Made by a program: the position numbers and the translations under genes. The notes below the pieces were generated by a model. It made no database searches. It was not told where the DNA came from and was given only the letters and a program-made list of their open reading frames with translations. A stretch of DNA of 39,382 nt from a virus (taxonomy: Duplodnaviria > Heunggongvirae > Uroviricota > Caudoviricetes): the IMG/VR virus record IMGVR_UViG_2923296884_000001, one strand, 5' to 3'. Of this stretch, positions 1 to 39,382 are shown piece by piece (the first letter of the stretch is position 1; the number at the start of each line of letters is the position of its first letter).

Positions 1-1293
<1,293 letters not shown>

Positions 1294-16229: not shown

Positions 16230-18107
16230 TTATGCTGCGGGATTATTGATTTCCAGCACCAGGCTGCCGATATCGACGCCATACGTTGCATTTTTGGTAA
16301 TATCCGTCAGCGTCAGTGCATTCAGCCCCAGTGTCAGACTGTCTTTTATGACCTGGAATGCCGGGCCAACCAGTCCATTCAGTTTCGGAGTAACCGTGGC
16401 ACTGCCGGCGGTGAACACCAGCTCCAGCGTCTGCCAGTCGTTACTGTAATTCCCGAACTCGCCCAACTTTGTGTTTCCGGCTTTCTTGTGATGCATCAGA
16501 TTCAGTTTGCCGTCTGTGGTCTGGGTGAAGAACGACATCAGGAACGGGTTACCAGTCCCGGTCATCGCCACGACGTCAGGTAACGCTACATCGGTATACA
16601 GATAAATTCCCAGACCGAACTGGTTGTTGGTCAGTGCGCCTGACAGTCGAAACTTACAGCTCAGTCTGCCACCCCGTGTCAGCAGGGAGACTGCGTCATC
16701 CACCGGGCGCGTCAGGGACCAGGCTTTATTGCTCTGCTTGGCGATCTTAAATACACCATCTGACAACTGAATTCCGCCATTCTTAATGCTCCAGCCCTGC
16801 GCAGCAGCATCTCCGGCTGTCGGCAACAGGGAGATTGTGCGTACGGATGCATCTTCAGACGGCCCCGATGGCGTGTCGCCGCCGGGCGAGGGTTTGATTT
16901 CCGGTGCCTTACCACTGATGAAGGCTGAGGTGCGCCCGGCTGCGTTCAGAATAGCGGTTGCCATACGATCCGGAATAATGCTCCTGCGCGCCCATGAACT
17001 GAAATGTGTCGGGCGGTTTGATGATACCCAATTACCATTACTACGGGATTGCGCGCCGTAATAACCTGCATCAGCAATATCCGGGTCTTCTGCCGGTAAG
17101 TTGGTGGGCGTGTTGTTGCCGTTACCGTCGGTCATGAACGGCACAAAGAAAACGTTGTCGCTCTCCCTGTTTTTGTACGCGCCGTAGACGGAGTCATACT
17201 GTGTGCCGTATGTGTTTTTCCAGTAATACGTCGTGTCGCCACAAATCCACGGTACAACTGCAGCACTGCCGCCATGGCACTGCGCGTTAAATCCGGAAAG
17301 GTCAGTACGGAACTGCTTCAGCATGGCCGTGAACAGGTCCGGTTGCTGTGCGTAGGTGGCAGCGCTCATGTCAAATTCGCCCTGCATCCAGCACACCGCC
17401 AGCAACACATTTTTCGGGTTCTTCTGTAATGCCGCTTTGGTGCGTGCGATCAGGTCCTGATATAACGGTTTACCCACACCCCAGCGTGCCGAATCCTGGC
17501 TGGCCCCCGTGTCCGCACTGAATGTCCCCTCCGCGCCCTGGGTGAATGCCGAACCACCACGACAGCATGGTACCAGCAGGATCCCCGCGTTATTCGGGAT
17601 ATACGGAAGCAGTTTTTTGGCAATATGTAAGCCCTGGCCGACACAGCCGTACTGCCCTTTGCTCAGGTCTGCCTTCGGATGATTCAGTGCGCTCATATCC
17701 TGAACATCATGCAGGCAGTGGTCTGCCGGAATGATGTCGTTAAATGCGCATGCTTTACCACCGGGAGTCACTGTGTTGCGACGGGCCAGTTGCTTAATGC
17801 GTGGGTGGGGCGCATCGTAAGAATCCGGCAGCGGCATTCCCTCACCATATGACATGGCATTGGATTGACCAGCAAGTACCACCACGTAATACCACTCCGG
17901 CACGCTGCCGTGCTGGGGGGAATCAGGTGAGATGTCTGTAGTGCCATCGGCCACCATTGCCTGCATTAGATACCACGGGGTGCCGGGTTCGTAGGCAACC
18001 CGCGTCTCCCCCTGAAGATGCCACCCTTTCGCAAGATGTTCATTCACCTTTTGAGTCAGTTCAGCCTGTGTCATGGCTGTAATCAGTGCAAAGTTCTTAC
18101 TGGTCAT
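16230..18107 (-). CDS. SASA-domain carbohydrate esterase (sialate O-acetylesterase-like, NanS-p-like), 625 aa
   Basis: Contains VVVLAGQSNAMSYGEG (GQSN motif) and WMQGEFD, typical of the SASA esterase family, plus a ~300-aa C-terminal domain; start overlaps the o-spanin stop (ATGA). Confidence 0.75.
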   Translation of the reverse strand: MTSKNFALITAMTQAELTQKVNEHLAKGWHLQGETRVAYEPGTPWYLMQAMVADGTTDISPDSPQHGSVPEWYYVVVLAGQSNAMSYGEGMPLPDSYDAPHPRIKQLARRNTVTPGGKACAFNDIIPADHCLHDVQDMSALNHPKADLSKGQYGCVGQGLHIAKKLLPYIPNNAGILLVPCCRGGSAFTQGAEGTFSADTGASQDSARWGVGKPLYQDLIARTKAALQKNPKNVLLAVCWMQGEFDMSAATYAQQPDLFTAMLKQFRTDLSGFNAQCHGGSAAVVPWICGDTTYYWKNTYGTQYDSVYGAYKNRESDNVFFVPFMTDGNGNNTPTNLPAEDPDIADAGYYGAQSRSNGNWVSSNRPTHFSSWARRSIIPDRMATAILNAAGRTSAFISGKAPEIKPSPGGDTPSGPSEDASVRTISLLPTAGDAAAQGWSIKNGGIQLSDGVFKIAKQSNKAWSLTRPVDDAVSLLTRGGRLSCKFRLSGALTNNQFGLGIYLYTDVALPDVVAMTGTGNPFLMSFFTQTTDGKLNLMHHKKAGNTKLGEFGNYSNDWQTLELVFTAGSATVTPKLNGLVGPAFQVIKDSLTLGLNALTLTDITKNATYGVDIGSLVLEINNPAA

Positions 18108-25859: not shown

Positions 25860-25876
25860 TGGGGCTGTCCTTTTTA
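25848..25876. terminator. bidirectional rho-independent terminator between convergent Q and the 174-aa gene
   Basis: ACAGCCCC-gtgat-GGGGCTGT stem-loop with an A-run upstream and T-run downstream. Confidence 0.65.
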
Positions 25877-26398
25877 CCAGAGTTGAACCATTTTCTGGGT
25901 GCCGTCAGGCTTGAGATTATCAATTTCAGAGAGAACGTAATATTGAATGGCTTCACAAACGGTGGTGTAGGGTGAATTACCTTCTTTAAGTGGCACGATA
26001 TTATTATTAACGCGAACCTGTATTTCATCGTTATACATTGCGATCGAAACAGGCGTGTGCACGAACGCGACTTCGCCAGGTGTGTCGTCAACCACCGTTT
26101 CAATACTAAAAGTCAGTTTTCGCTCATCATTGCTGCCCCGTGCTTTGGGGGTAGCGGCAGGGATCTGGGATAAAGGCATTCTGCGAAATCCTTCGGCTGC
26201 TTCCAGTCCGCATGAAACGTAATGCTGGCGATTACCGTCGCTATCTGTCCAGGTCTGTGATGGCAGCTCCAGCGAGATTTCATAAGCATCAACAATGCCC
26301 TGGGCAAGGCGTACAAGCGGGGTCAGATCTTCATTGCGGCGAAAGCTCTCCTTTACCTGCTCCCGTTTTTCTCTTAACTGCTTGTAATTAATGACCAT
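25874..26398 (-). CDS. hypothetical protein (about 174 aa), orphan gene between Q and the early-operon terminator
   Basis: ORF 25874..26437 with start refined to the ATG about 26398 (MVINYKQLREK...) preceded by a GGAGG SD; lower GC than neighbours; no family recognised. Confidence 0.6.
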   Translation of the reverse strand: MVINYKQLREKREQVKESFRRNEDLTPLVRLAQGIVDAYEISLELPSQTWTDSDGNRQHYVSCGLEAAEGFRRMPLSQIPAATPKARGSNDERKLTFSIETVVDDTPGEVAFVHTPVSIAMYNDEIQVRVNNNIVPLKEGNSPYTTVCEAIQYYVLSEIDNLKPDGTQKMVQLW

Positions 26399-26495
26399 AA
26401 GACAGCCTCCATTGATTTCTTTGCTCGTATTTTGCACTTATGAAGTATGGTCGGCAAGGTGCCGTATCGCTGACGCGCTTCGCTTGTCTGCTGCT

Positions 26496-26524
26496 TCGCC
26501 GGGGCATAAAAAATTTATGCCCCG
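26496..26524. repeat. 29-bp perfect palindrome GCCGGGGCATAAA-aaa-TTTATGCCCCGGC
   Basis: Read directly from the sequence; lies in the ~500-bp noncoding stretch upstream of the 174-aa gene. Confidence 0.7.
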
Positions 26525-26930
26525 GCTCTCCAGCTCCTGTATCAATCAGATAATTTCACGACGCCTTCCAGTTTATCGCCACCATCGACGGTCAGACTCT
26601 TACGCAATTCCACCGCGTTGACTGCATGTTCTCGCTGCCTCAGTGCGATTTTGACGGCCTTACCTTTCACCCCATCAAATCAAAAGCCCTCACGCCTTTT
26701 TCATGCTCAGCGTGAGAAATATGGCCATTCTGTTGTGTCTCTGCGACATCGTTCAGGGAATGCTATTTACCCCCTGAAACGCGGGCTGTTCCCCCGTCAC
26801 CTGCGCGCAGAAAAAGCGCGTTTTTTTGTGCACGCACGGATCCTTGACGGATCCAGCCGCCATGCGGGCCGGAAGGGTAAAAAGTCGTTCAAAAAAATTG
26901 TGCAAATTTGTGCACTTTTGTGCAAACAAA

Positions 26931-26956
26931 AAGCGCCCCTGAGGCGCTTTAGTGTT
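26931..26956. terminator. terminator of the leftward early/accessory operon (bidirectional stem-loop)
   Basis: AAGCGCC-cctga-GGCGCTT flanked by A/T runs, about 30 bp after the last minus-strand gene; preceded by three TTGTGCA direct repeats (26899-26930). Confidence 0.6.
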
Positions 26957-26984
26957 TTATAGGTTGTGTATATTTGCTGGGTCC

Positions 26985-27248
26985 TTATCCTGCTGTGCTT
27001 TCAACTGATGAGGGGAACAAAATCTTTTCATCAAACCCTGCATTCATATCATGGACAGCAACACACCAATCCATTGACGAACGATTATCAAGAGCCTCCA
27101 TGATTTCATCCATGCGGCGTAGGTCATACAGGTAAATGCTTTTATCGCCAATGGTGTAAAAACCAATTTTTTTCGGTGATGGACAGCGATCAAGAACGTC
27201 CTGTAATTCGCTCAACCATGCTTGTTCTTTTTTTGTCAAAGTTGCCAT
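26985..27248 (-). CDS. hypothetical protein (87 aa)
   Basis: Start ATG at 27248 with strong SD GAAAGGAG; packed TGAtATG against the upstream gene. Confidence 0.6.
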   Translation of the reverse strand: MATLTKKEQAWLSELQDVLDRCPSPKKIGFYTIGDKSIYLYDLRRMDEIMEALDNRSSMDWCVAVHDMNAGFDEKILFPSSVESTAG

Positions 27249-27249
27249 A

Positions 27250-27690
27250 TCACTCTCCTTTCCCATGAAGCATAGCGGCGCGGCAGGCGTTCCATATTTC
27301 GGCAGCAATATAGCGCTCGCTATCGGTTAATTTGTACGTGGAAACATAGCCAGAGAGCATTTCTACGTTTTCCGGAGTTGCTTCTTCCGGCACTACCGGC
27401 GCTGGCAAGGCAGCGTGATAGTAGAGTGGCATAGTTTTGTACAGTGGTTCGCCAGGACTTCCGTCAGCCTGATTCCATTCTTCAACCCAGGCATCAACAA
27501 CCGCTTTGCTGGTTGATACATGTTCTTCTGAATCTACATTTTGTCCTGATATACAGAACATAACTGCCTCTGCTTCCAGCGATGCCAGAGCAATTTCATA
27601 AGCCCGACGCTCAATATTGTCTCGGACGTCCAGGCTGCCTATGCGCTCTTTGATTTCTTTAATCAGTTCTTTGTCGGTAAAAGTGGTCAT
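27250..27690 (-). CDS. hypothetical acidic protein (146 aa)
   Basis: Start ATG at 27690 (MTTFTDKEL...) with SD AAAGGAG. Confidence 0.6.
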   Translation of the reverse strand: MTTFTDKELIKEIKERIGSLDVRDNIERRAYEIALASLEAEAVMFCISGQNVDSEEHVSTSKAVVDAWVEEWNQADGSPGEPLYKTMPLYYHAALPAPVVPEEATPENVEMLSGYVSTYKLTDSERYIAAEIWNACRAAMLHGKGE

Positions 27691-27691
27691 A

Positions 27692-28006
27692 TCAATCTCC
27701 TTTGGTACCAATGTTTACAGCCTGGTAAGCCTCTTTGAGCACCCAGTCAACAGCGTCTTTCCATGCTCCGGTTTCGACTGGCGGATTCTCACGCTTTACC
27801 TGTTCATAGAAACGCACCGCTCTAACCAGTCCATCTGACGGTTTTGCCTGTAGTGCAGCCTGAGCTATGCGGTATGCCTGGAGCATACGGGCGTCGTTGA
27901 TATCCATTCCGAACGGAATTTCTGATGATTGTGACTCTGCATCTTCAAGCCTGGCAATTTCTTTACGTAAGAAGTATTTCAACTCTTGTTTCTGTTTTCT
28001 GTTCAT
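27692..28006 (-). CDS. hypothetical protein (104 aa)
   Basis: ATG at 28006 overlaps the upstream stop (ATGA). Confidence 0.6.
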
Positions 28007-28335
28007 GCGTTTTTTTCCTTTTTGTCTGTCACTTCTTTCCTGATAATTTCATTGCACAAATCCACGCACTCATTGCAGATGTAAACAGACGGTCCGGCAA
28101 TCACCTTTGTGACTTCGTACTGGGATTTATTGCAGAAGCTGCAATAAACCGTCTTCTCGCCTGAAGTCCATGTTTTGCTGGTTTCGCCAGACATCAGTTG
28201 TTTGAGGTCTTTTTCACGACGAAGAACTATCTGGCCACATTCAGCTATTTTTTGGATGTTGACATTTTCTTCTTTCGCCAGCGCTTCCATCCGCTCAATC
28301 AGTCGCTGCGCTTTTTCTCTGTCAATGTGTTGCAT
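28003..28335 (-). CDS. small protein with a C-terminal ClpX-type C4 zinc finger
   Basis: C-terminus [36 protein letters not shown] closely matches the ClpX N-terminal zinc-binding domain (CSFCGK...[15 protein letters not shown]); strong SD AAGGGGGA. Confidence 0.7.
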
Positions 28336-28398
28336 TGTGTCCCCCTTGTTTATGCTCCCGGGTTAAAGTCATCAGGGCGGATGCGCCCTGATGTTGTG

Positions 28399-28710
28399 TT
28401 ATTCGGGAAATAACGCCCGGATATTTCCGGCCATCTGACTGGTTATCTGTGCGGCTGATACTGGCTGTGACGCGGGGCGTTCTGTCCTGGTTTGTGTCAT
28501 TGATAACGCCTCATCATCAGCCCATGCAGCCAGTCGGTAAGCCTCTGCCGGATTCATTTTCAGTAGTGCCAGCCCGGCCAGAAAAGCCACGCGTTGACCA
28601 CTTTTGCGGGCTTCTGGTGTAAGGCTGTCCAGCCAGGCGCATGCTTCGCCTTCGTTCTTGACGGCGGCGGGCTTCAGATAGAAACTTATCCGTCTGGTTG
28701 GTGTCGTCAT
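28399..28710 (-). CDS. parR: ParR-like partition adaptor (103 aa)
   Basis: ATG at 28710 four nt after the parM stop, SD AAGGAG; N-terminus ISFYLKPAAVKN...VAFLAGLALL resembles plasmid R1 ParR (IAFKLNPDVN...AALTAGLALY). Confidence 0.7.
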   Translation of the reverse strand: MTTPTRRISFYLKPAAVKNEGEACAWLDSLTPEARKSGQRVAFLAGLALLKMNPAEAYRLAAWADDEALSMTQTRTERPASQPVSAAQITSQMAGNIRALFPE

Positions 28711-28714
28711 TGGT

Positions 28715-29674
28715 TTACTCCTTGTCCATTGCGTACAGCCCATTAACCAGAGCAAACTGTGGCACCCCGTCCGCGATGAAAGTCGCATTAACTCCGCAGG
28801 CTTCGCGGATAGCGGGTGCCACAATCTCTGCCCCGCCACCGACAACCATCACCCGCCCGTAACCCGAAAAACCCGCCAGCGCGCGGATCACGCGTTGTTT
28901 CAGTGTTTCTTCCTTTTCACGAATAACCGCCATCAGGCTGGCGTAATGCGCGTCATTGTGGATGTGCTGGCGCAGCCAGGCTTCATCATGGCGATGTTCG
29001 ATAATGGTATTGGCGATGTGGTGACTGGTACGCATACCGTTAGTGGCCATCACCGACAGTACGGCATCGGCCATCAGGGAAACGCCTACGTGTGGATCGC
29101 AAAACACCTGGCTGATACCTGCCAGTTGTCCCTGAACCTTTGCCACATCCAGCGTGGTTCCGCCTAAATCCACAATCAGCAGGGATTCAAACGGACTCAT
29201 GTCAGCCAGTGCCTTAAAGCCAGCCGGAATGGATTCAGGCATAACCCGCACGTTACGGATAGTGAATGCTTCGCCGTTCTGGTACTCCACCGGGCGCATA
29301 ACGTTCGCTTTTTTGCGGTTGATGTTGGCCATGTCCGGCTGTGCGTTTGTGTCGAAATACTCGCTCAGTGGCAGGGTGACAACCACATCCACCTCCTGTG
29401 GCGTGATGCCTGATTTGACCAGCGCGTGATGAATGGCGATTACATTCACATCGCTGTACTGGTATTGCGTGTCGGTCGTCTGGACAAAGCGATCGCTAAC
29501 CGGATCAAAACCATAGCGCACGCCATCAAGCATGTAGTTCGCGGGCTGCATGCCACCGAACGGCGCAGACCATTCCGACTTGAAGCTGTTCGGGCTGATG
29601 GCGTTGCGGCGTTCGCCATTCTCAGTCCATGCCAGCTTGATGTTGGTGGAGCCGTCGTCGATACAAATTTTCAT
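28715..29674 (-). CDS. parM: ParM/StbA actin-like segregation ATPase
   Basis: 319 aa; MKICIDDGSTNIKLAW... with full-length similarity to plasmid R1 ParM (phosphate-1 motif DDGSTNIKL, VMPESIPAG, LIVDLGGTTLD, VVGGGAE). Confidence 0.9.
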   Translation of the reverse strand: MKICIDDGSTNIKLAWTENGERRNAISPNSFKSEWSAPFGGMQPANYMLDGVRYGFDPVSDRFVQTTDTQYQYSDVNVIAIHHALVKSGITPQEVDVVVTLPLSEYFDTNAQPDMANINRKKANVMRPVEYQNGEAFTIRNVRVMPESIPAGFKALADMSPFESLLIVDLGGTTLDVAKVQGQLAGISQVFCDPHVGVSLMADAVLSVMATNGMRTSHHIANTIIEHRHDEAWLRQHIHNDAHYASLMAVIREKEETLKQRVIRALAGFSGYGRVMVVGGGAEIVAPAIREACGVNATFIADGVPQFALVNGLYAMDKE

Positions 29675-33248: not shown

Positions 33249-33426
33249 GATGTGGCCTCTCTGTTAGTTAGTTTTGAAAACTCACCATCCAGAGGTTCCA
33301 AGCTCGGGGTGGTGAGACGTACAGGGTTGGAACTACCGGCTAACAGAGGACCCGGCCCAGCTGATGCTGGCCCTGTACGCCCCACCATAATTCTGACGCG
33401 AAAAAGACGTGGCGATACGGCACGCA

Positions 33427-33448
33427 CAAAAAAACCGCTGGCGCGGTT
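33427..33448 (-). terminator. rho-independent terminator candidate (minus strand) between the SPFH module and the replication module
   Basis: Minus-strand AACCGC-gcca-GCGGTT followed by TTTTTTTG. Confidence 0.45.
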
Positions 33449-33615
33449 GTGCGCTCTGTTAGTCTGCGGGGTTCCAATCCCGGCACCCGTTTTATGAGGT
33501 GCAGCGGAAATGTAACCTGACTGATTGCGGCATGGCAAGCGGTTTTTTTGTGAGAACGGCATACTAAAAAATCCTGATACTGCTCCGGCCAGCGGTTTTC
33601 ACTGGCCGGGTTTAA

Positions 33616-34446
33616 TTACTTCACCGGAACAAACGGAACAGCGGTGTTACTGGTCATGTATTGCGGTAGCGTGCCGTTCCATTTGTTAATCGCTTCCAGC
33701 TCCATAACGCCGGGATTCTGGCGCAGAGCTTCACCGCGTAAACGAATGGCGTCGGCTTCAGCCTGGGCTTTTGTGCGAATGGCATCGGCTTGTCCGGCAG
33801 CTTCTGCGCGCAGCATGTTGGCTTCAGCTTCGCGTTGCTTGACTTCCTGTTCACGTTGCAGGGTTTTCTGGTTTGCCGTGACTTTGGCATTAATGCTGTC
33901 GATAACGGTTGGCGGGTATTCCGGCTTACCCACATAAGAGAGGCTCATTACCTGAATGCCGATAGGTGTCATTTCTGCCTGAATGTCTTTAAGTGCTGAA
34001 TCCAGCAGTTCAGACTTGCCACCGTCGATAAATTTATCGGTGGTCATTTTGCTGGCCAGTCGGTTGAGTGCGTCGGCGATCTTCTGGCGCAGGTCAGTGT
34101 CGGTAATGTCGTCCACGCCTTTGCGGTAGGTCTGAAACACCGTGGTAACTTTGGATGGATCAACTTTGTAGGCCACGCCGATGTGATAGCCGATGGTTGT
34201 GCCGTCACTCATCTGGAAGTTGAACGGCTCATCGTAAGTCTTCATTTGTTTGAAAGTCGGGAAGATGTAAACCTCTGTATTCCAGCCTGTCCAGTAGCGG
34301 CCAACGCCAACTACTTCGCCGACGCCTTTGTCGTCGCCCAGTTTGTTGACTTTGATTCCCACATTACCTGGCTCAACGCGATCGCAACCAACCAGCAGGA
34401 TGGCGGCAAAAAGCGGGAGAATCTGAAAGAGTTTGAATTTCTTCAT
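33616..34446 (-). CDS. SPFH/band-7 domain lipoprotein (276 aa)
   Basis: Signal peptide with lipobox LLVGC, then a region reading as an SPFH/band-7 domain, then a coiled-coil Ala/Glu/Gln-rich C-terminus; SD AAGGAA; overlaps the upstream gene (ATGA). Confidence 0.85.
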   Translation of the reverse strand: MKKFKLFQILPLFAAILLVGCDRVEPGNVGIKVNKLGDDKGVGEVVGVGRYWTGWNTEVYIFPTFKQMKTYDEPFNFQMSDGTTIGYHIGVAYKVDPSKVTTVFQTYRKGVDDITDTDLRQKIADALNRLASKMTTDKFIDGGKSELLDSALKDIQAEMTPIGIQVMSLSYVGKPEYPPTVIDSINAKVTANQKTLQREQEVKQREAEANMLRAEAAGQADAIRTKAQAEADAIRLRGEALRQNPGVMELEAINKWNGTLPQYMTSNTAVPFVPVK

Positions 34447-34646
34447 TGCTTGATTTCCTTGATGTACTTACTGAAAAGGCGAACAACGCCTGCCGGGTAC
34501 AGCATGGCAATGAAAATGCCCAGCAATACCAGGAAGGAGCTGTCTGATGAAATCATTCGGGGGAGTAGTCCTGCATACAGAATGAAAGAGACGAGGACGC
34601 ATACCAGCGCCCACATGTATGCGCGAAACCAGGTCTTTTTGTTCAT
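34443..34646 (-). CDS. small two-helix membrane protein (67 aa), partner of the SPFH gene
   Basis: Two hydrophobic helices (WALVCVLVSFILYAGLL, FLVLLGIFIAMLYPAGVV); translationally coupled on both sides. Confidence 0.65.
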   Translation of the reverse strand: MNKKTWFRAYMWALVCVLVSFILYAGLLPRMISSDSSFLVLLGIFIAMLYPAGVVRLFSKYIKEIKQ

Positions 34647-34861
34647 GTTGATTGCTCTCTTTTGTTATTCAGGAAAAAGTCAAAAACGTTATCGATGCGC
34701 ATCATGAGTTCGCGCTGCATCGCTTCTGGTGTTTCCGGTTCACCAGGCGACCCCAGCGTTGCGCAGAAATCAGCGATCTCGTGTTGAATGAGTTCTTTCA
34801 GCGTCGGTAAGGAATTCATGTGTGTGCGGCGATGCCTGCGTGTGATTCGCCTTCTGCTCAT
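34643..34861 (-). CDS. hypothetical protein (72 aa)
   Basis: Overlaps neighbours by ATGA at both ends; Arg-rich N-terminus. Confidence 0.5.
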   Translation of the reverse strand: MSRRRITRRHRRTHMNSLPTLKELIQHEIADFCATLGSPGEPETPEAMQRELMMRIDNVFDFFLNNKREQST

Positions 34862-35084: not shown

Positions 35085-35495
35085 CTATGCGTTAAATACG
35101 GTGCACTGTGCGTCATCAATGAATGCGACTTGAGAGCGCTCTATCAGGCGGAGATTTGTCAGAATTTCTGATTCCCTTATGGGGTGAGGAGTGATCAGGT
35201 ATTTATCCTGTAACCCGGCGATAATGGTGTATCGCTGTAGCTCCGAGCCAATTGTGTAAATAAGGCGTCCGGTGTTAGACAAATCCAGTCCGGTGACGGG
35301 TTGTGTTCTGAGAACCGCCAGTTCAGCATCCTGTTTTGCGATAATTTCGGCTGCTTCTGCCGTGACTCTTGCGACTATCAGTGTGTGGGTTGCGACGTCC
35401 ATATGATTATTTGCTATGGCTTTTTTCGCTACTACGTTTTCTGTCTTTGAAATTTCTTTCAGTGCTCTGATGATACCTTCTTCTTTTGCGTGCAT
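35085..35495 (-). CDS. hypothetical protein (136 aa)
   Basis: ATG at 35495 with SD GGAG; first gene of the coupled block ending with the SPFH gene. Confidence 0.6.
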   Translation of the reverse strand: MHAKEEGIIRALKEISKTENVVAKKAIANNHMDVATHTLIVARVTAEAAEIIAKQDAELAVLRTQPVTGLDLSNTGRLIYTIGSELQRYTIIAGLQDKYLITPHPIRESEILTNLRLIERSQVAFIDDAQCTVFNA

Positions 35496-35560
35496 TTTTG
35501 TATCTCCGTTATTTGCGTGTGCGAATACCTCCGTTAATACGGATGGTTTTCTCGTTTTCT

Positions 35561-35701
35561 TATTTAATTTGATGTTTTATTTGTATCGTTATTCACCAGT
35601 GAAAAACGTTCAATCTTTTTTACTGAATGAATAATTCGCATAATTCCAATAGCGCAGGCCACCGAAATAATCAGAACAAGCCATGAGATAAATATACTCA
35701 T
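35561..35701 (-). CDS. small hydrophobic single-TM protein (46 aa; not in ORF track)
   Basis: ATG at 35701 overlaps the upstream stop (ATGA); translation MSIFISWLVLIISVACAIGIMRIIHSVKKIERFSLVNNDTNKTSN. Confidence 0.45.
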
Positions 35702-35940
35702 GCGATATTCCCCAGCTTATACGGTTCAATATGTTCCCCGCATTCTGCGGCACAGATCAGCTCGGAAAGTTCGTTAAGTGCATCCAGATCATCAGCGTAA
35801 AAAGCCACGTCATACAGACTCCGGATTGCCCTGGTCAATGAGTCACGGGCTGCACGTTCAGCATGAGCGCCTGATGCACTTAAGCGAAAATAAAAACGCT
35901 CAAGTGCTTTGTTAATGAGAGTTTTATATTCTTTGCCCAT
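35698..35940 (-). CDS. hypothetical protein (80 aa)
   Basis: Start refined to the ATG at 35940 (MGKEYKTLINK...), SD AAAGGG. Confidence 0.5.
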   Translation of the reverse strand: MGKEYKTLINKALERFYFRLSASGAHAERAARDSLTRAIRSLYDVAFYADDLDALNELSELICAAECGEHIEPYKLGNIA

Positions 35941-38320: not shown

Positions 38321-38389
38321 CTCTACACATTGAGCGAATTACATATCGCAAGGAGTGTTTAGTTAATTTATCCGTTGGAGGGGCTAATC

Positions 38390-39382
38390 ATGTCGATTAA
38401 GCAACTCAAAGACGGACGTTATCAGGTCGATGTCAGACCGCAGGGGGCGGAAGGAAAGCGGATTCGAAAAATCTTTGCCCTGAAATCAAAGGCTCAGGAG
38501 TTTGAGAAGTATGTGTTACAGAACTTTCATGACAAGCCATGGCAGGCTAAGCCAGCTGATCAGCGGCGATTATCAGAGCTGCTTGATGCGTGGTGGATGC
38601 TTGATGGTCGTAATCAGGCTTACGGGGATAGCTACAGGGTTAGGCTAGGGAAGGTTGTTCGTGAAATGGGAGATCCTCGCGCCAGTCAGATGACGCGAAA
38701 ATTTATGCTTGAATATCGGTCAGAGAAATTACAGGCCGGATTAATGCCGTCCAGTATTAATCGTGACTTATGCGTACTGTCTACCATGTTCACGGTGCTG
38801 ATTGAAGCTGAGGTCTTTCACAACGCGAACCCTGTACGCGGTATACGAAAACTGAAAGTTCAGAACACAGAGATGGCCTTTCTTTCTGATGATGAGATTG
38901 AACGGCTTCTTGAGCGACTGGAGGGTGATGCGCGTCGTGTTGCCATTCTGTGTCTTTCTACTGGTGCCCGATGGAGTGAAGCATCGGAACTACGTGGAGA
39001 GCATATCGTTGGCAACCGGGTGACGTTCTTTAACACCAAAAACGGAAAATCCCGTTCGGTTCCTGTGGCGGATTCGGTCGTGCCTCTGATTAAAACCCGT
39101 CGAACGGGGTTATTGTATCAGGTTGATTATCTGAAGTTCCGGGAGATTCTTCAGGAGGTGAAACCGGATTTGCCGAAGGGGCAGGCTACGCATGTCATGC
39201 GTCATACATTTGCCACACACTTTATGATGAATGGCGGAAATATTGTTACGTTGCAACGAATCCTGGGGCACGCAACGATTCAGCAAACAATGACGTACGC
39301 TCATTTTTCGCCGGACTTCTTACAGGACGCGATCAACTTTAATCCGCTGGCTGAAAGTGTCCATAAACTGTCCATCGATTAG
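38390..39382 (+). CDS. int: tyrosine integrase (P2 Int family)
   Basis: Start refined to the ATG at 38390 (SD GGAGG); C-terminal catalytic region with ...HVMRHTFATHF...LGHATIQQTMTYAH; stop TAG at 39380-39382 is the last triplet of the window. Confidence 0.92.
   Translation: MSIKQLKDGRYQVDVRPQGAEGKRIRKIFALKSKAQEFEKYVLQNFHDKPWQAKPADQRRLSELLDAWWMLDGRNQAYGDSYRVRLGKVVREMGDPRASQMTRKFMLEYRSEKLQAGLMPSSINRDLCVLSTMFTVLIEAEVFHNANPVRGIRKLKVQNTEMAFLSDDEIERLLERLEGDARRVAILCLSTGARWSEASELRGEHIVGNRVTFFNTKNGKSRSVPVADSVVPLIKTRRTGLLYQVDYLKFREILQEVKPDLPKGQATHVMRHTFATHFMMNGGNIVTLQRILGHATIQQTMTYAHFSPDFLQDAINFNPLAESVHKLSID

Follow-up and report, generated by a model that had tools for sequence, protein, structure and literature searches.

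The closest described relative of the gene examined here is gp07 of phage P88 (YP_009113050.1), which is named a "membrane protein" in its public record. The homolog in phage vB_EcoM-569R5 is called a "putative membrane protein," and a UniProt member of the family is listed as a "Prophage membrane protein." In the literature searched on this peptide, on DUF4754, and on Xuanwuvirus, the P88 paper included, nothing on the function of these proteins was found. The window gene and P88 gp07 are the same gene: both follow a DUF4754 gene, and both begin in an ATGA overlap. In P88 and most relatives the product has 37 amino acids and ends in FFTGE, whereas a 1-nt deletion gives the window copy 45 amino acids.

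Other small proteins invite comparison because of their form or placement. MgrB, AcrZ, MgtS, PmrR, and CydX resemble the peptide in having fewer than 50 amino acids, one transmembrane helix, and a short charged cytoplasmic end. Conserved small residues in the helix are common to these regulators and to the peptide. However, searches of Pfam and NCBIfam reveal no sequence relation between them, and the regulators are encoded by stress-induced chromosomal genes, whereas the small gene is phage-encoded, translationally coupled, and located within an early lytic operon. Type I toxins (Hok/Gef, Ldr, TisB, Ibs, ShoB, ZorO, and DinQ), some of which are prophage-borne, share a small hydrophobic helix, a charged tail, and residence on a mobile element. 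They differ in having an antisense RNA, a separate transcription unit, and a structured leader, none of which was detected for the small gene; the latter also lacks homology to these toxins and is read by coupling from an upstream gene. Finally, temperate phages encode small early host-takeover proteins, such as lambda Kil and CIII and 186 Fil and Dhr. The genes for these proteins are likewise short, non-essential-looking early genes situated between the lysis–lysogeny switch and the replication genes. Their products show no sequence similarity to the peptide, and neither lambda Kil nor CIII is known to be an integral single-pass membrane protein.

Location of the gene in a P88-like prophage

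The features on which the analysis rests are as follows.

35564..35701, minus strand: small membrane-peptide gene, 45 codons plus TAA; homolog of P88 gp07, matching RefSeq WP_000021657.1
35698..35940, minus strand: DUF4754 gene, 80 amino acids, coupled to the small gene (Pfam PF15946, E = 2.8e-54)
35698..35701, minus strand: ATGA overlap of the DUF4754-gene stop and the small-gene start, an arrangement of the type expected for translational coupling
35709..35713, minus strand: Shine-Dalgarno-like GGGGA, 8–12 nt 5′ of the ATG (its GGGG run, 35710..35713, at 9–12 nt)
35639..35695, minus strand: predicted transmembrane core, residues 3–21 (IFISWLVLIISVACAIGIM), from hydropathy, a helix model, and conserved columns
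35602..35606, minus strand: T5 homopolymer in codons 32–34 (A5 on the plus strand), one T fewer than in sister alleles
35530..35543, minus strand: conserved stem-loop in the 3′ untranslated region, TCCGT-ATTA-ACGGA then GG in the sense orientation

The window, by which we mean the whole 39,382-nt stretch of DNA that was analyzed, looks like a complete P88-like prophage (Xuanwuvirus, Peduoviridae, P2 family), judging by sequence comparison. The region compared matches the E. coli U15A chromosome at 100% identity and P88-like phages at 95–99%, and the late genes are ∼94–95% identical to those of the same phages. The prophage lies between serS and its own integrase gene. The seryl-tRNA synthetase gene serS occupies 1–1293 (plus strand) at the start of the window, and the integrase gene (38375–39382, plus strand) reaches the far end, so the host flank on that side falls outside the window. 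At two related loci (L101 and L107) a molybdopterin oxidoreductase gene adjoins the integrase gene.

On the minus strand, the genes run from cox through a 140-amino-acid gene, DUF4761, a phrog_3800 gene, and DUF4754 to the small ORF, which is followed by variable genes, a gene for an SPFH lipoprotein, and the gene for replication endonuclease A. The order cox, DUF4761, (phrog_3800), DUF4754, small gene recurs in P88, vB_EcoM-569R5, Chuche, and many prophages. From this gene order and the established biology of P2, we infer that the small gene lies in the cox-to-A early lytic operon and is transcribed with it. The early-region placement proposed in the preliminary description agrees with this arrangement, in that the gene shares the strand of cox and replication gene A and is located between them. 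Scans for promoters and terminators between 34800 and 38200 gave results at the level expected by chance. A holin or antiholin role was rejected since the gene is in the early operon, on the early strand, and outside the late lysis cassette. With regard to superinfection exclusion of the HK97 gp15 or Sie type, the gene order places the gene within the cox-to-A operon, where it is expected to be silenced by the repressor, and internal promoters were seen at chance level only.

Several other parts of the prophage were recorded along the way. A 72-amino-acid ORF (34643–34861, minus strand) overlaps each of its neighbors by 4 nt, and RefSeq treats it at the identical U15A locus as a partial pseudogene with a missing N-terminus, which indicates minor decay among the variable early genes. 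A second early-operon membrane pair (33616–34646, minus strand) consists of a 67-amino-acid protein with two hydrophobic segments (34443–34646) whose gene overlaps the SPFH/Band-7 lipoprotein gene (33616–34446) by 4 nt. This pair resembles NfeD–SPFH pairs in its arrangement; PADLOC returned no match for it above threshold. Rfam matches to C4 antisense RNA (78.5 bits) and to the isrK Hfq-binding RNA (72.4 bits) at 33305–33392 and 33428–33502 (minus strand) adjoin a truncated ash-family pseudogene, and by these matches the region is an antirepressor-control module of the P1/Gifsy-1 type within a P2-like prophage. Between replication gene A and the late genes is a cargo region (25874–29674, minus strand), which we take to correspond to the spot of the tin and old cargo genes of P2. 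It includes a gene for a ParM-like actin (28715–29674; StbA_N E = 2.7e-82, ParM_N E = 1.3e-68) and two ORFs (25874–26437 and 27250–27711) with no Pfam or PADLOC match. Among the late genes, 16230–18107 (minus strand) encodes a 625-amino-acid protein with DUF1737, a SASA sialate-O-acetylesterase domain, and DUF6645; this is a NanS-p-like esterase of the kind known from Stx prophages.

Conservation and selection of the reading frame

The small ORF covers 138 nt with its stop codon (ATG 35701..35699, TAA 35566..35564), and its product is MSIFISWLVLIISVACAIGIMRIIHSVKKIERFSLVNNDTNKTSN, which has 45 amino acids. The gene had been described preliminarily as spanning 35561–35701 and encoding 46 residues. 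The ORF itself is real, but the left coordinate lies 3 nt beyond its true end at 35564 and the length was one residue too great. The gene had also been called unannotated, which is incorrect since public records list it both as P88 gp07 and as WP_000021657.1, a hypothetical protein at the identical E. coli U15A locus. In the phage records 520873 and phiSM, the small ORF is present without annotation.

The ATG of the small gene shares the sequence ATGA with the TGA (35700..35698) of the upstream 80-amino-acid gene, as originally noted. At every related locus with a listed junction, including those of a divergent subfamily described below, this junction reads GCATGA; thus the 4-nt overlap is invariant across these loci, in agreement with the proposed coupling to the upstream gene. 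The Shine-Dalgarno-like GGGGA sits within the final codons of the DUF4754 gene. Divergent relatives have GAGG or GGAGG located 6–10 nt 5′ of the ATG, and the residues encoded there differ. We count the retention of this motif, despite the different ends of the upstream protein in the subfamilies, as support for coupling.

To judge whether the peptide is encoded by a selected gene, we drew on IMG/VR, GenBank phages, RefSeq E. coli genomes, and public assemblies for 108 related loci, which together with the window make 109 sources. Conservation of the frame in relatives had been proposed at the outset as a check on the gene, and the frame is clearly conserved: It is open in 106 of the 109 sources. 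The three exceptions are a locus cut by an IS3 insertion, a phage record that is evidently frameshifted, and phage Chuche, which has a 30-amino-acid version. Substitutions were examined in the first 33 codons of 36 distinct nucleotide sequences. Variable sites at codon positions 1, 2, and 3 number 9, 3, and 18, respectively (chi-square p = 0.003), and this excess of third-position substitutions is found only in the small gene's own frame. Likewise, the summed pairwise pN/pS is 0.19 in frame, compared with 1.37 and 1.30 in the other two frames. The same calculation yields 0.10 for the neighboring DUF4754 gene and 0.14 for the phrog_3800 gene. Between the two subfamilies dN/dS is 0.10–0.40, with synonymous sites near saturation. 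The ratios from both comparisons bear out the original reading of the ORF as a protein-coding gene.

Alternatively, the ORF could be an untranslated chance frame whose conservation derives from a DNA or RNA element or from the neighboring genes. The ORF is indeed very short, and neither a family model nor proteomic evidence is at hand. Yet the third-position excess occurs in this frame only, the pN/pS value resembles those of the neighboring genes, and the ORF stays open over roughly 50% amino acid divergence with its start context conserved. This possibility is already contradicted by the data and has a negligible probability. Judged by these substitution patterns, it is virtually certain that the ORF is a genuine membrane-peptide gene under purifying selection.

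None of the ORFs that overlap the small gene, whether in another frame or on the opposite strand, shows a coding signature. A GTG-started 47-amino-acid ORF (35610..35753, minus strand) was rejected since the pN/pS of its frame exceeds 1 and it is seen only as frameshift fusions in some assemblies. A plus-strand 72-amino-acid ORF (35416..35634) was rejected because it spans the point where P88 homology stops.

The gene is common. Of 5426 complete E. coli genomes, 1384, or about a quarter, carry it, and the family extends through Escherichia, with occasional members in Shigella, Salmonella, and a Citrobacter phage. Conservation therefore spans a limited evolutionary depth. One related locus (L004; NZ_JBQPOM010000071.1), labeled as the Gram-positive Vagococcus sp. 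WN89Y, carries this E. coli prophage region with 98% protein identity, and its label probably reflects assembly contamination or mislabeling. When the peptide was compared by tblastn with 50,697 phage records, matches were found only in P88-like phages, and none in P2 or 186. A profile search of 1.84 billion representative proteins gave 17 matches at E ≤ 0.001, all of them to the P88 gp07 family. No match to the peptide was found in PHROGs or Pfam at E ≤ 0.1, and no family match, defense models included, was found in NCBIfam or PADLOC at E ≤ 1. The sole NCBIfam hit, to an unrelated family with five transmembrane segments (15 bits against a cut-off of 35), was discarded as hydrophobic noise.

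The profile search also revealed a subfamily of 41 amino acids, exemplified by MSVFLSWVILIISVLMAIGIMRIIEALKNIESLFTGEERRK. It is very common in E. coli, with at least 1000 contigs for one member, and residues 1–33 of its members are 52–82% identical to those of the window peptide. At eight loci of the subfamily, the gene again directly follows an 80- or 81-amino-acid gene with a GCATGA overlap, although the upstream protein in seven of the eight is only 26–40% identical to the window DUF4754. Over all loci of the subfamily, the upstream DUF4754-like protein is 26–82% identical to that of the window.

The columns conserved in both subfamilies are M1, F4, S6, W7, L10, I11, A17, and G19, followed by R22, I24, I30, E31, and F34 and then T-G-[E/D]. 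The window peptide is identical to P88 gp07 over residues 1–33 and carries the core pattern of that family (M-x-x-F-x-S-W-x-x-L-I...A-x-G..R-x-I). A pattern of small residues in the helix, [S/A]13-xxx-A17-x-G19, is evident, and variability in the helix is weakly concentrated on one face, with marginal significance (permutation p = 0.047). By the slower divergence of the peptide relative to the upstream protein, by the A17, G19, and FTG[E/D] columns, and by the helix face, the alignments indicate that the peptide is constrained beyond simple hydrophobicity.

The frameshifted C-terminus and the downstream hairpin

Most alleles encode 37 amino acids ending in IERFFTGE, and this ancestral stop codon corresponds to 35589..35591 in the window. 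The loss of one nucleotide from the T-run converts an end of FFTGE (37 amino acids) to one of FSLVNNDTNKTSN (45 amino acids). As a consequence, the tail of the window peptide after I30-E31-R-F33 is SLVNNDTNKTSN in place of the conserved FTGE end. These 12 final residues are a frameshift product, encoded by DNA that belongs to the 3′ untranslated region of sister alleles. The peptide had been described as having a basic, polar tail. This holds for the segment HSVKKIERF, which is conserved, but not as a family trait for the final 12 residues, which are frameshift-derived and replace FTG[E/D]. The I-E-x-x-F-T-G-[E/D] end of the P88 gp07 family, with or without a KRRK extension, is thus absent from the window copy. 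By its shared core sequence, this copy is a member of the family by descent and a C-terminal variant.

The 45-amino-acid form is found in the window and in 8 of 97 other loci with an intact core. The window and locus L001, which have T5, differ from locus L003, which has T6, by the T-run and one other base in a 91-nt stretch. The same 1-nt loss is seen in two more backgrounds when L058, L073, and L076 are compared with L040 and L009, and when L033 is compared with L021. By these comparisons, the deletion in the T-run arose in at least three sequence backgrounds. The exact 45-amino-acid peptide of the window occurs on at least 1000 contigs, so a sequencing error can be dismissed and the allele is a real, common one. 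We also considered programmed −1 frameshifting at the T-run but rejected it since the 45-amino-acid frame is +1 relative to that of the 37-amino-acid form and the −1 frame stops after two codons.

Does the window copy represent an allele that is decaying or altered in function through loss of the C-terminal motif? Residues F34, T35, G36, and E/D37, which are conserved across both subfamilies, are replaced in the window, and the tails of the 45-amino-acid alleles vary freely (SLVNNDTNKTSN, SLTNNSLNKTPD, and SLANNRANKTTG). On the other hand, the transmembrane core and the residues through F33 are intact, the allele is common, and the prophage that carries it is apparently complete. Moreover, the change has come about repeatedly, at least three times, as would fit tolerance of the loss or even an advantage. 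We regard decay or altered function as possible but doubtful. Because alleles without FTG[E/D] are both recurrent and common, the C-terminal motif is dispensable at least for prophage persistence. The function of the window allele may be altered or weakened by the loss of the motif, even though the allele is widespread.

A conserved hairpin follows the gene. Its consensus on the sense strand is TCCG[T/C]-N4-[A/G]CGGA then GG, with a 5-bp stem, and it lies 21 nt past the stop codon in the window and 25–50 nt past the stop in other alleles. It was found in 108 of the 109 sources. Among 28 distinct sequences of the hairpin, pairing holds in 98.6% of cells, compensatory changes occur at two of the five base pairs, and the loop varies. 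The two wobble variants observed can pair on the mRNA-sense strand only. The hairpin sits just before the end of P88 homology (about 35515), the point that separates the conserved early genes from the variable downstream genes. It may mark an mRNA end or direct mRNA processing, or it may serve as a boundary sequence for recombination.

Predicted membrane topology and candidate functions

Over residues 3–21 of the peptide, the Kyte-Doolittle hydropathy averages 2.68 and the Hessa dG sums to −2.9 kcal/mol. Conserved within this core are F4, S6, W7, L10, I11, A17, and G19. The set used for comparison was the 177 ATG-started ORFs of 30–80 amino acids in the six frames of the window. An equally hydrophobic 19-residue stretch is present in only two of these ORFs, which is rarer than chance, and the small gene is the sole equally hydrophobic one that starts with ATGA. 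AlphaFold2 models a single helix over residues 2–41, with a mean pLDDT of 92–94 for the first 20 residues. The single transmembrane segment claimed in the preliminary description, for which a transmembrane prediction had been suggested as a check, is borne out by the hydropathy of residues 3–21 and the one modeled helix.

There are no lysine or arginine residues on the N-terminal side of the hydrophobic segment and five on the C-terminal side. By the positive-inside rule, we infer insertion into the inner membrane with the N-terminus out and the C-terminus in. The peptide is thus predicted to form a transmembrane helix of 19–23 residues in this orientation, followed by a conserved cytoplasmic segment. 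The conserved juxtamembrane part is a positively charged amphipathic helix (R22, I24, I30, E31, F34, T35, G36, and E/D37), in which I24, V/L27, I30, and F34 form a hydrophobic stripe, accompanied by E31. With fewer than 50 amino acids and one predicted transmembrane helix, the peptide has the size and shape of small membrane-protein regulators, as far as prediction goes.

Size and shape, namely a transmembrane helix plus a charged tail, are also like those of Hok, TisB, Ldr, and YohP-type peptides. The peptide could then be a membrane-damaging toxin that oligomerizes and depolarizes the inner membrane early in lytic growth without a specific partner, thereby shutting down the host. Its placement in the operon implies production only in lytic growth, when damage to the host is tolerable. 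However, depolarization at an early stage would be harmful to a phage that still needs to replicate, and the conserved cytoplasmic motif and the small helix residues point instead to a specific contact. There is also no toxin-family match in Pfam or NCBIfam; specifically, Pfam at E ≤ 0.1 gave no match to Hok, Ldr, TisB, Ibs, ShoB, Zor, or DinQ. No antisense RNA family was found by Rfam, which yielded nothing at gathering score for this locus in a search of the whole window and chance-level matches at E ≤ 10 between 35350 and 36000. Promoter-like sites occur at the level of chance, including a weak one on the plus strand at 35447..35474. The arrangement of type I toxin genes, a stand-alone unit with a structured leader, is not seen here, as the start codon overlaps an upstream stop within an operon. 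We consider a toxin of this kind unlikely. The role of toxin or modulator suggested in the preliminary description is only an analogy, and the databases searched gave no match to a toxin family, an antisense RNA, or a defense model.

A different role might follow from the DUF4754 partner. An AlphaFold2 model of this protein (pLDDT 88.8) has two helices, and it is predicted to be a small soluble helical hairpin. When the model was compared with the PDB and with viral models, the matches were all generic helical hairpins, and none reached E ≤ 0.001. One could imagine a two-part complex in which the peptide is the membrane anchor and holds the co-translated DUF4754 protein, or proteins of early replication, at the inner membrane. 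Without exception the two genes adjoin each other with a 4-nt overlap, which favors co-translation in step, and the predicted fold of DUF4754 shows no function of its own.

The partners, however, have been shuffled by recombination. Locus L103 joins a DUF4754 of the window type (82% identical) to a peptide of the 41-amino-acid type (64%), and at L101 a DUF4754 that is 40% identical precedes a peptide whose residues 1–24 are identical to those of the window but whose C-terminus is of the 41-amino-acid type. Recombination breakpoints within and between the two genes map to 4001–4126 of L101 and 3262–3626 of L103. In addition, the two proteins diverge at very different rates. Recombinational shuffling and unequal divergence argue against a co-evolving physical pair and favor coupling as an expression device, and we judge the anchor to be improbable. 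The strict adjacency of the DUF4754 gene and the small gene suggests co-expression.

The functional analogy that we favor is with the small single-transmembrane regulators MgrB, AcrZ, MgtS, PmrR, and CydX. By this analogy, the peptide may be a membrane modulator that binds a partner. The operon would be transcribed after infection or induction, and the peptide would be absent from a quiescent lysogen. Ribosomes terminating on the DUF4754 gene would restart on the small gene, and the peptide would insert into the inner membrane with its N-terminus out and its C-terminus in. For small proteins of such a type, post-translational insertion via SRP is possible (PMC7549839). The peptide would then pack against a membrane protein, most likely a conserved one of the host, through the conserved helix face ([S/A]13-xxx-A17-x-G19), and the cytoplasmic FTG[E/D] helix would serve as an effector or contact surface. 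A conserved host target would fit the observation that the peptide diverges more slowly than its phage neighbor.

Several observations weigh against this modulator mechanism. The helical-face signal is marginal (p about 0.05), and frameshifts that remove FTG[E/D] arose at least three times, with the window peptide present on at least 1000 contigs. Early expression is deduced from gene order only, and the promoter and terminator scans are at chance level. Furthermore, no homolog of known function, family model, or paper on function was found, and the family is confined to Escherichia and close relatives. We hold the modulator mechanism as a tentative reading. The blended claim that the ORF is a real membrane-peptide gene and that its product acts as a partner-binding modulator is somewhat probable.

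A stronger version can be proposed in which the peptide is a dedicated host-targeting effector of P88-like phages that inhibits a conserved inner-membrane machine of E. coli early in infection, with the slippage-prone T-run acting as a recurrent mutational switch. The machine would be bound through the conserved helix face and the FTG[E/D] helix, and candidate targets would include those of division, transport, respiration, and FtsH-type proteolysis. In prophages that their hosts retain over the long term, this switch would delete the motif of the effector. We consider this version quite unlikely.

The gene is listed in public annotation and, in that respect, is an ordinary but well-supported small phage gene. 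What this analysis adds is the evidence for selection, the family of 37- and 41-amino-acid forms, the C-terminal motif and its loss by frameshift in the window, and the conserved downstream hairpin. A gene carried by about a quarter of complete E. coli genomes is thus conserved and selected, and yet it is without a Pfam, PHROGs, or NCBIfam family. If modulation of a host membrane protein proves to be true, then the small-membrane-protein regulators would gain a phage example. The peptide would in that case also provide a handle on three early genes, DUF4761, phrog_3800, and DUF4754, found in a very common group of prophages.
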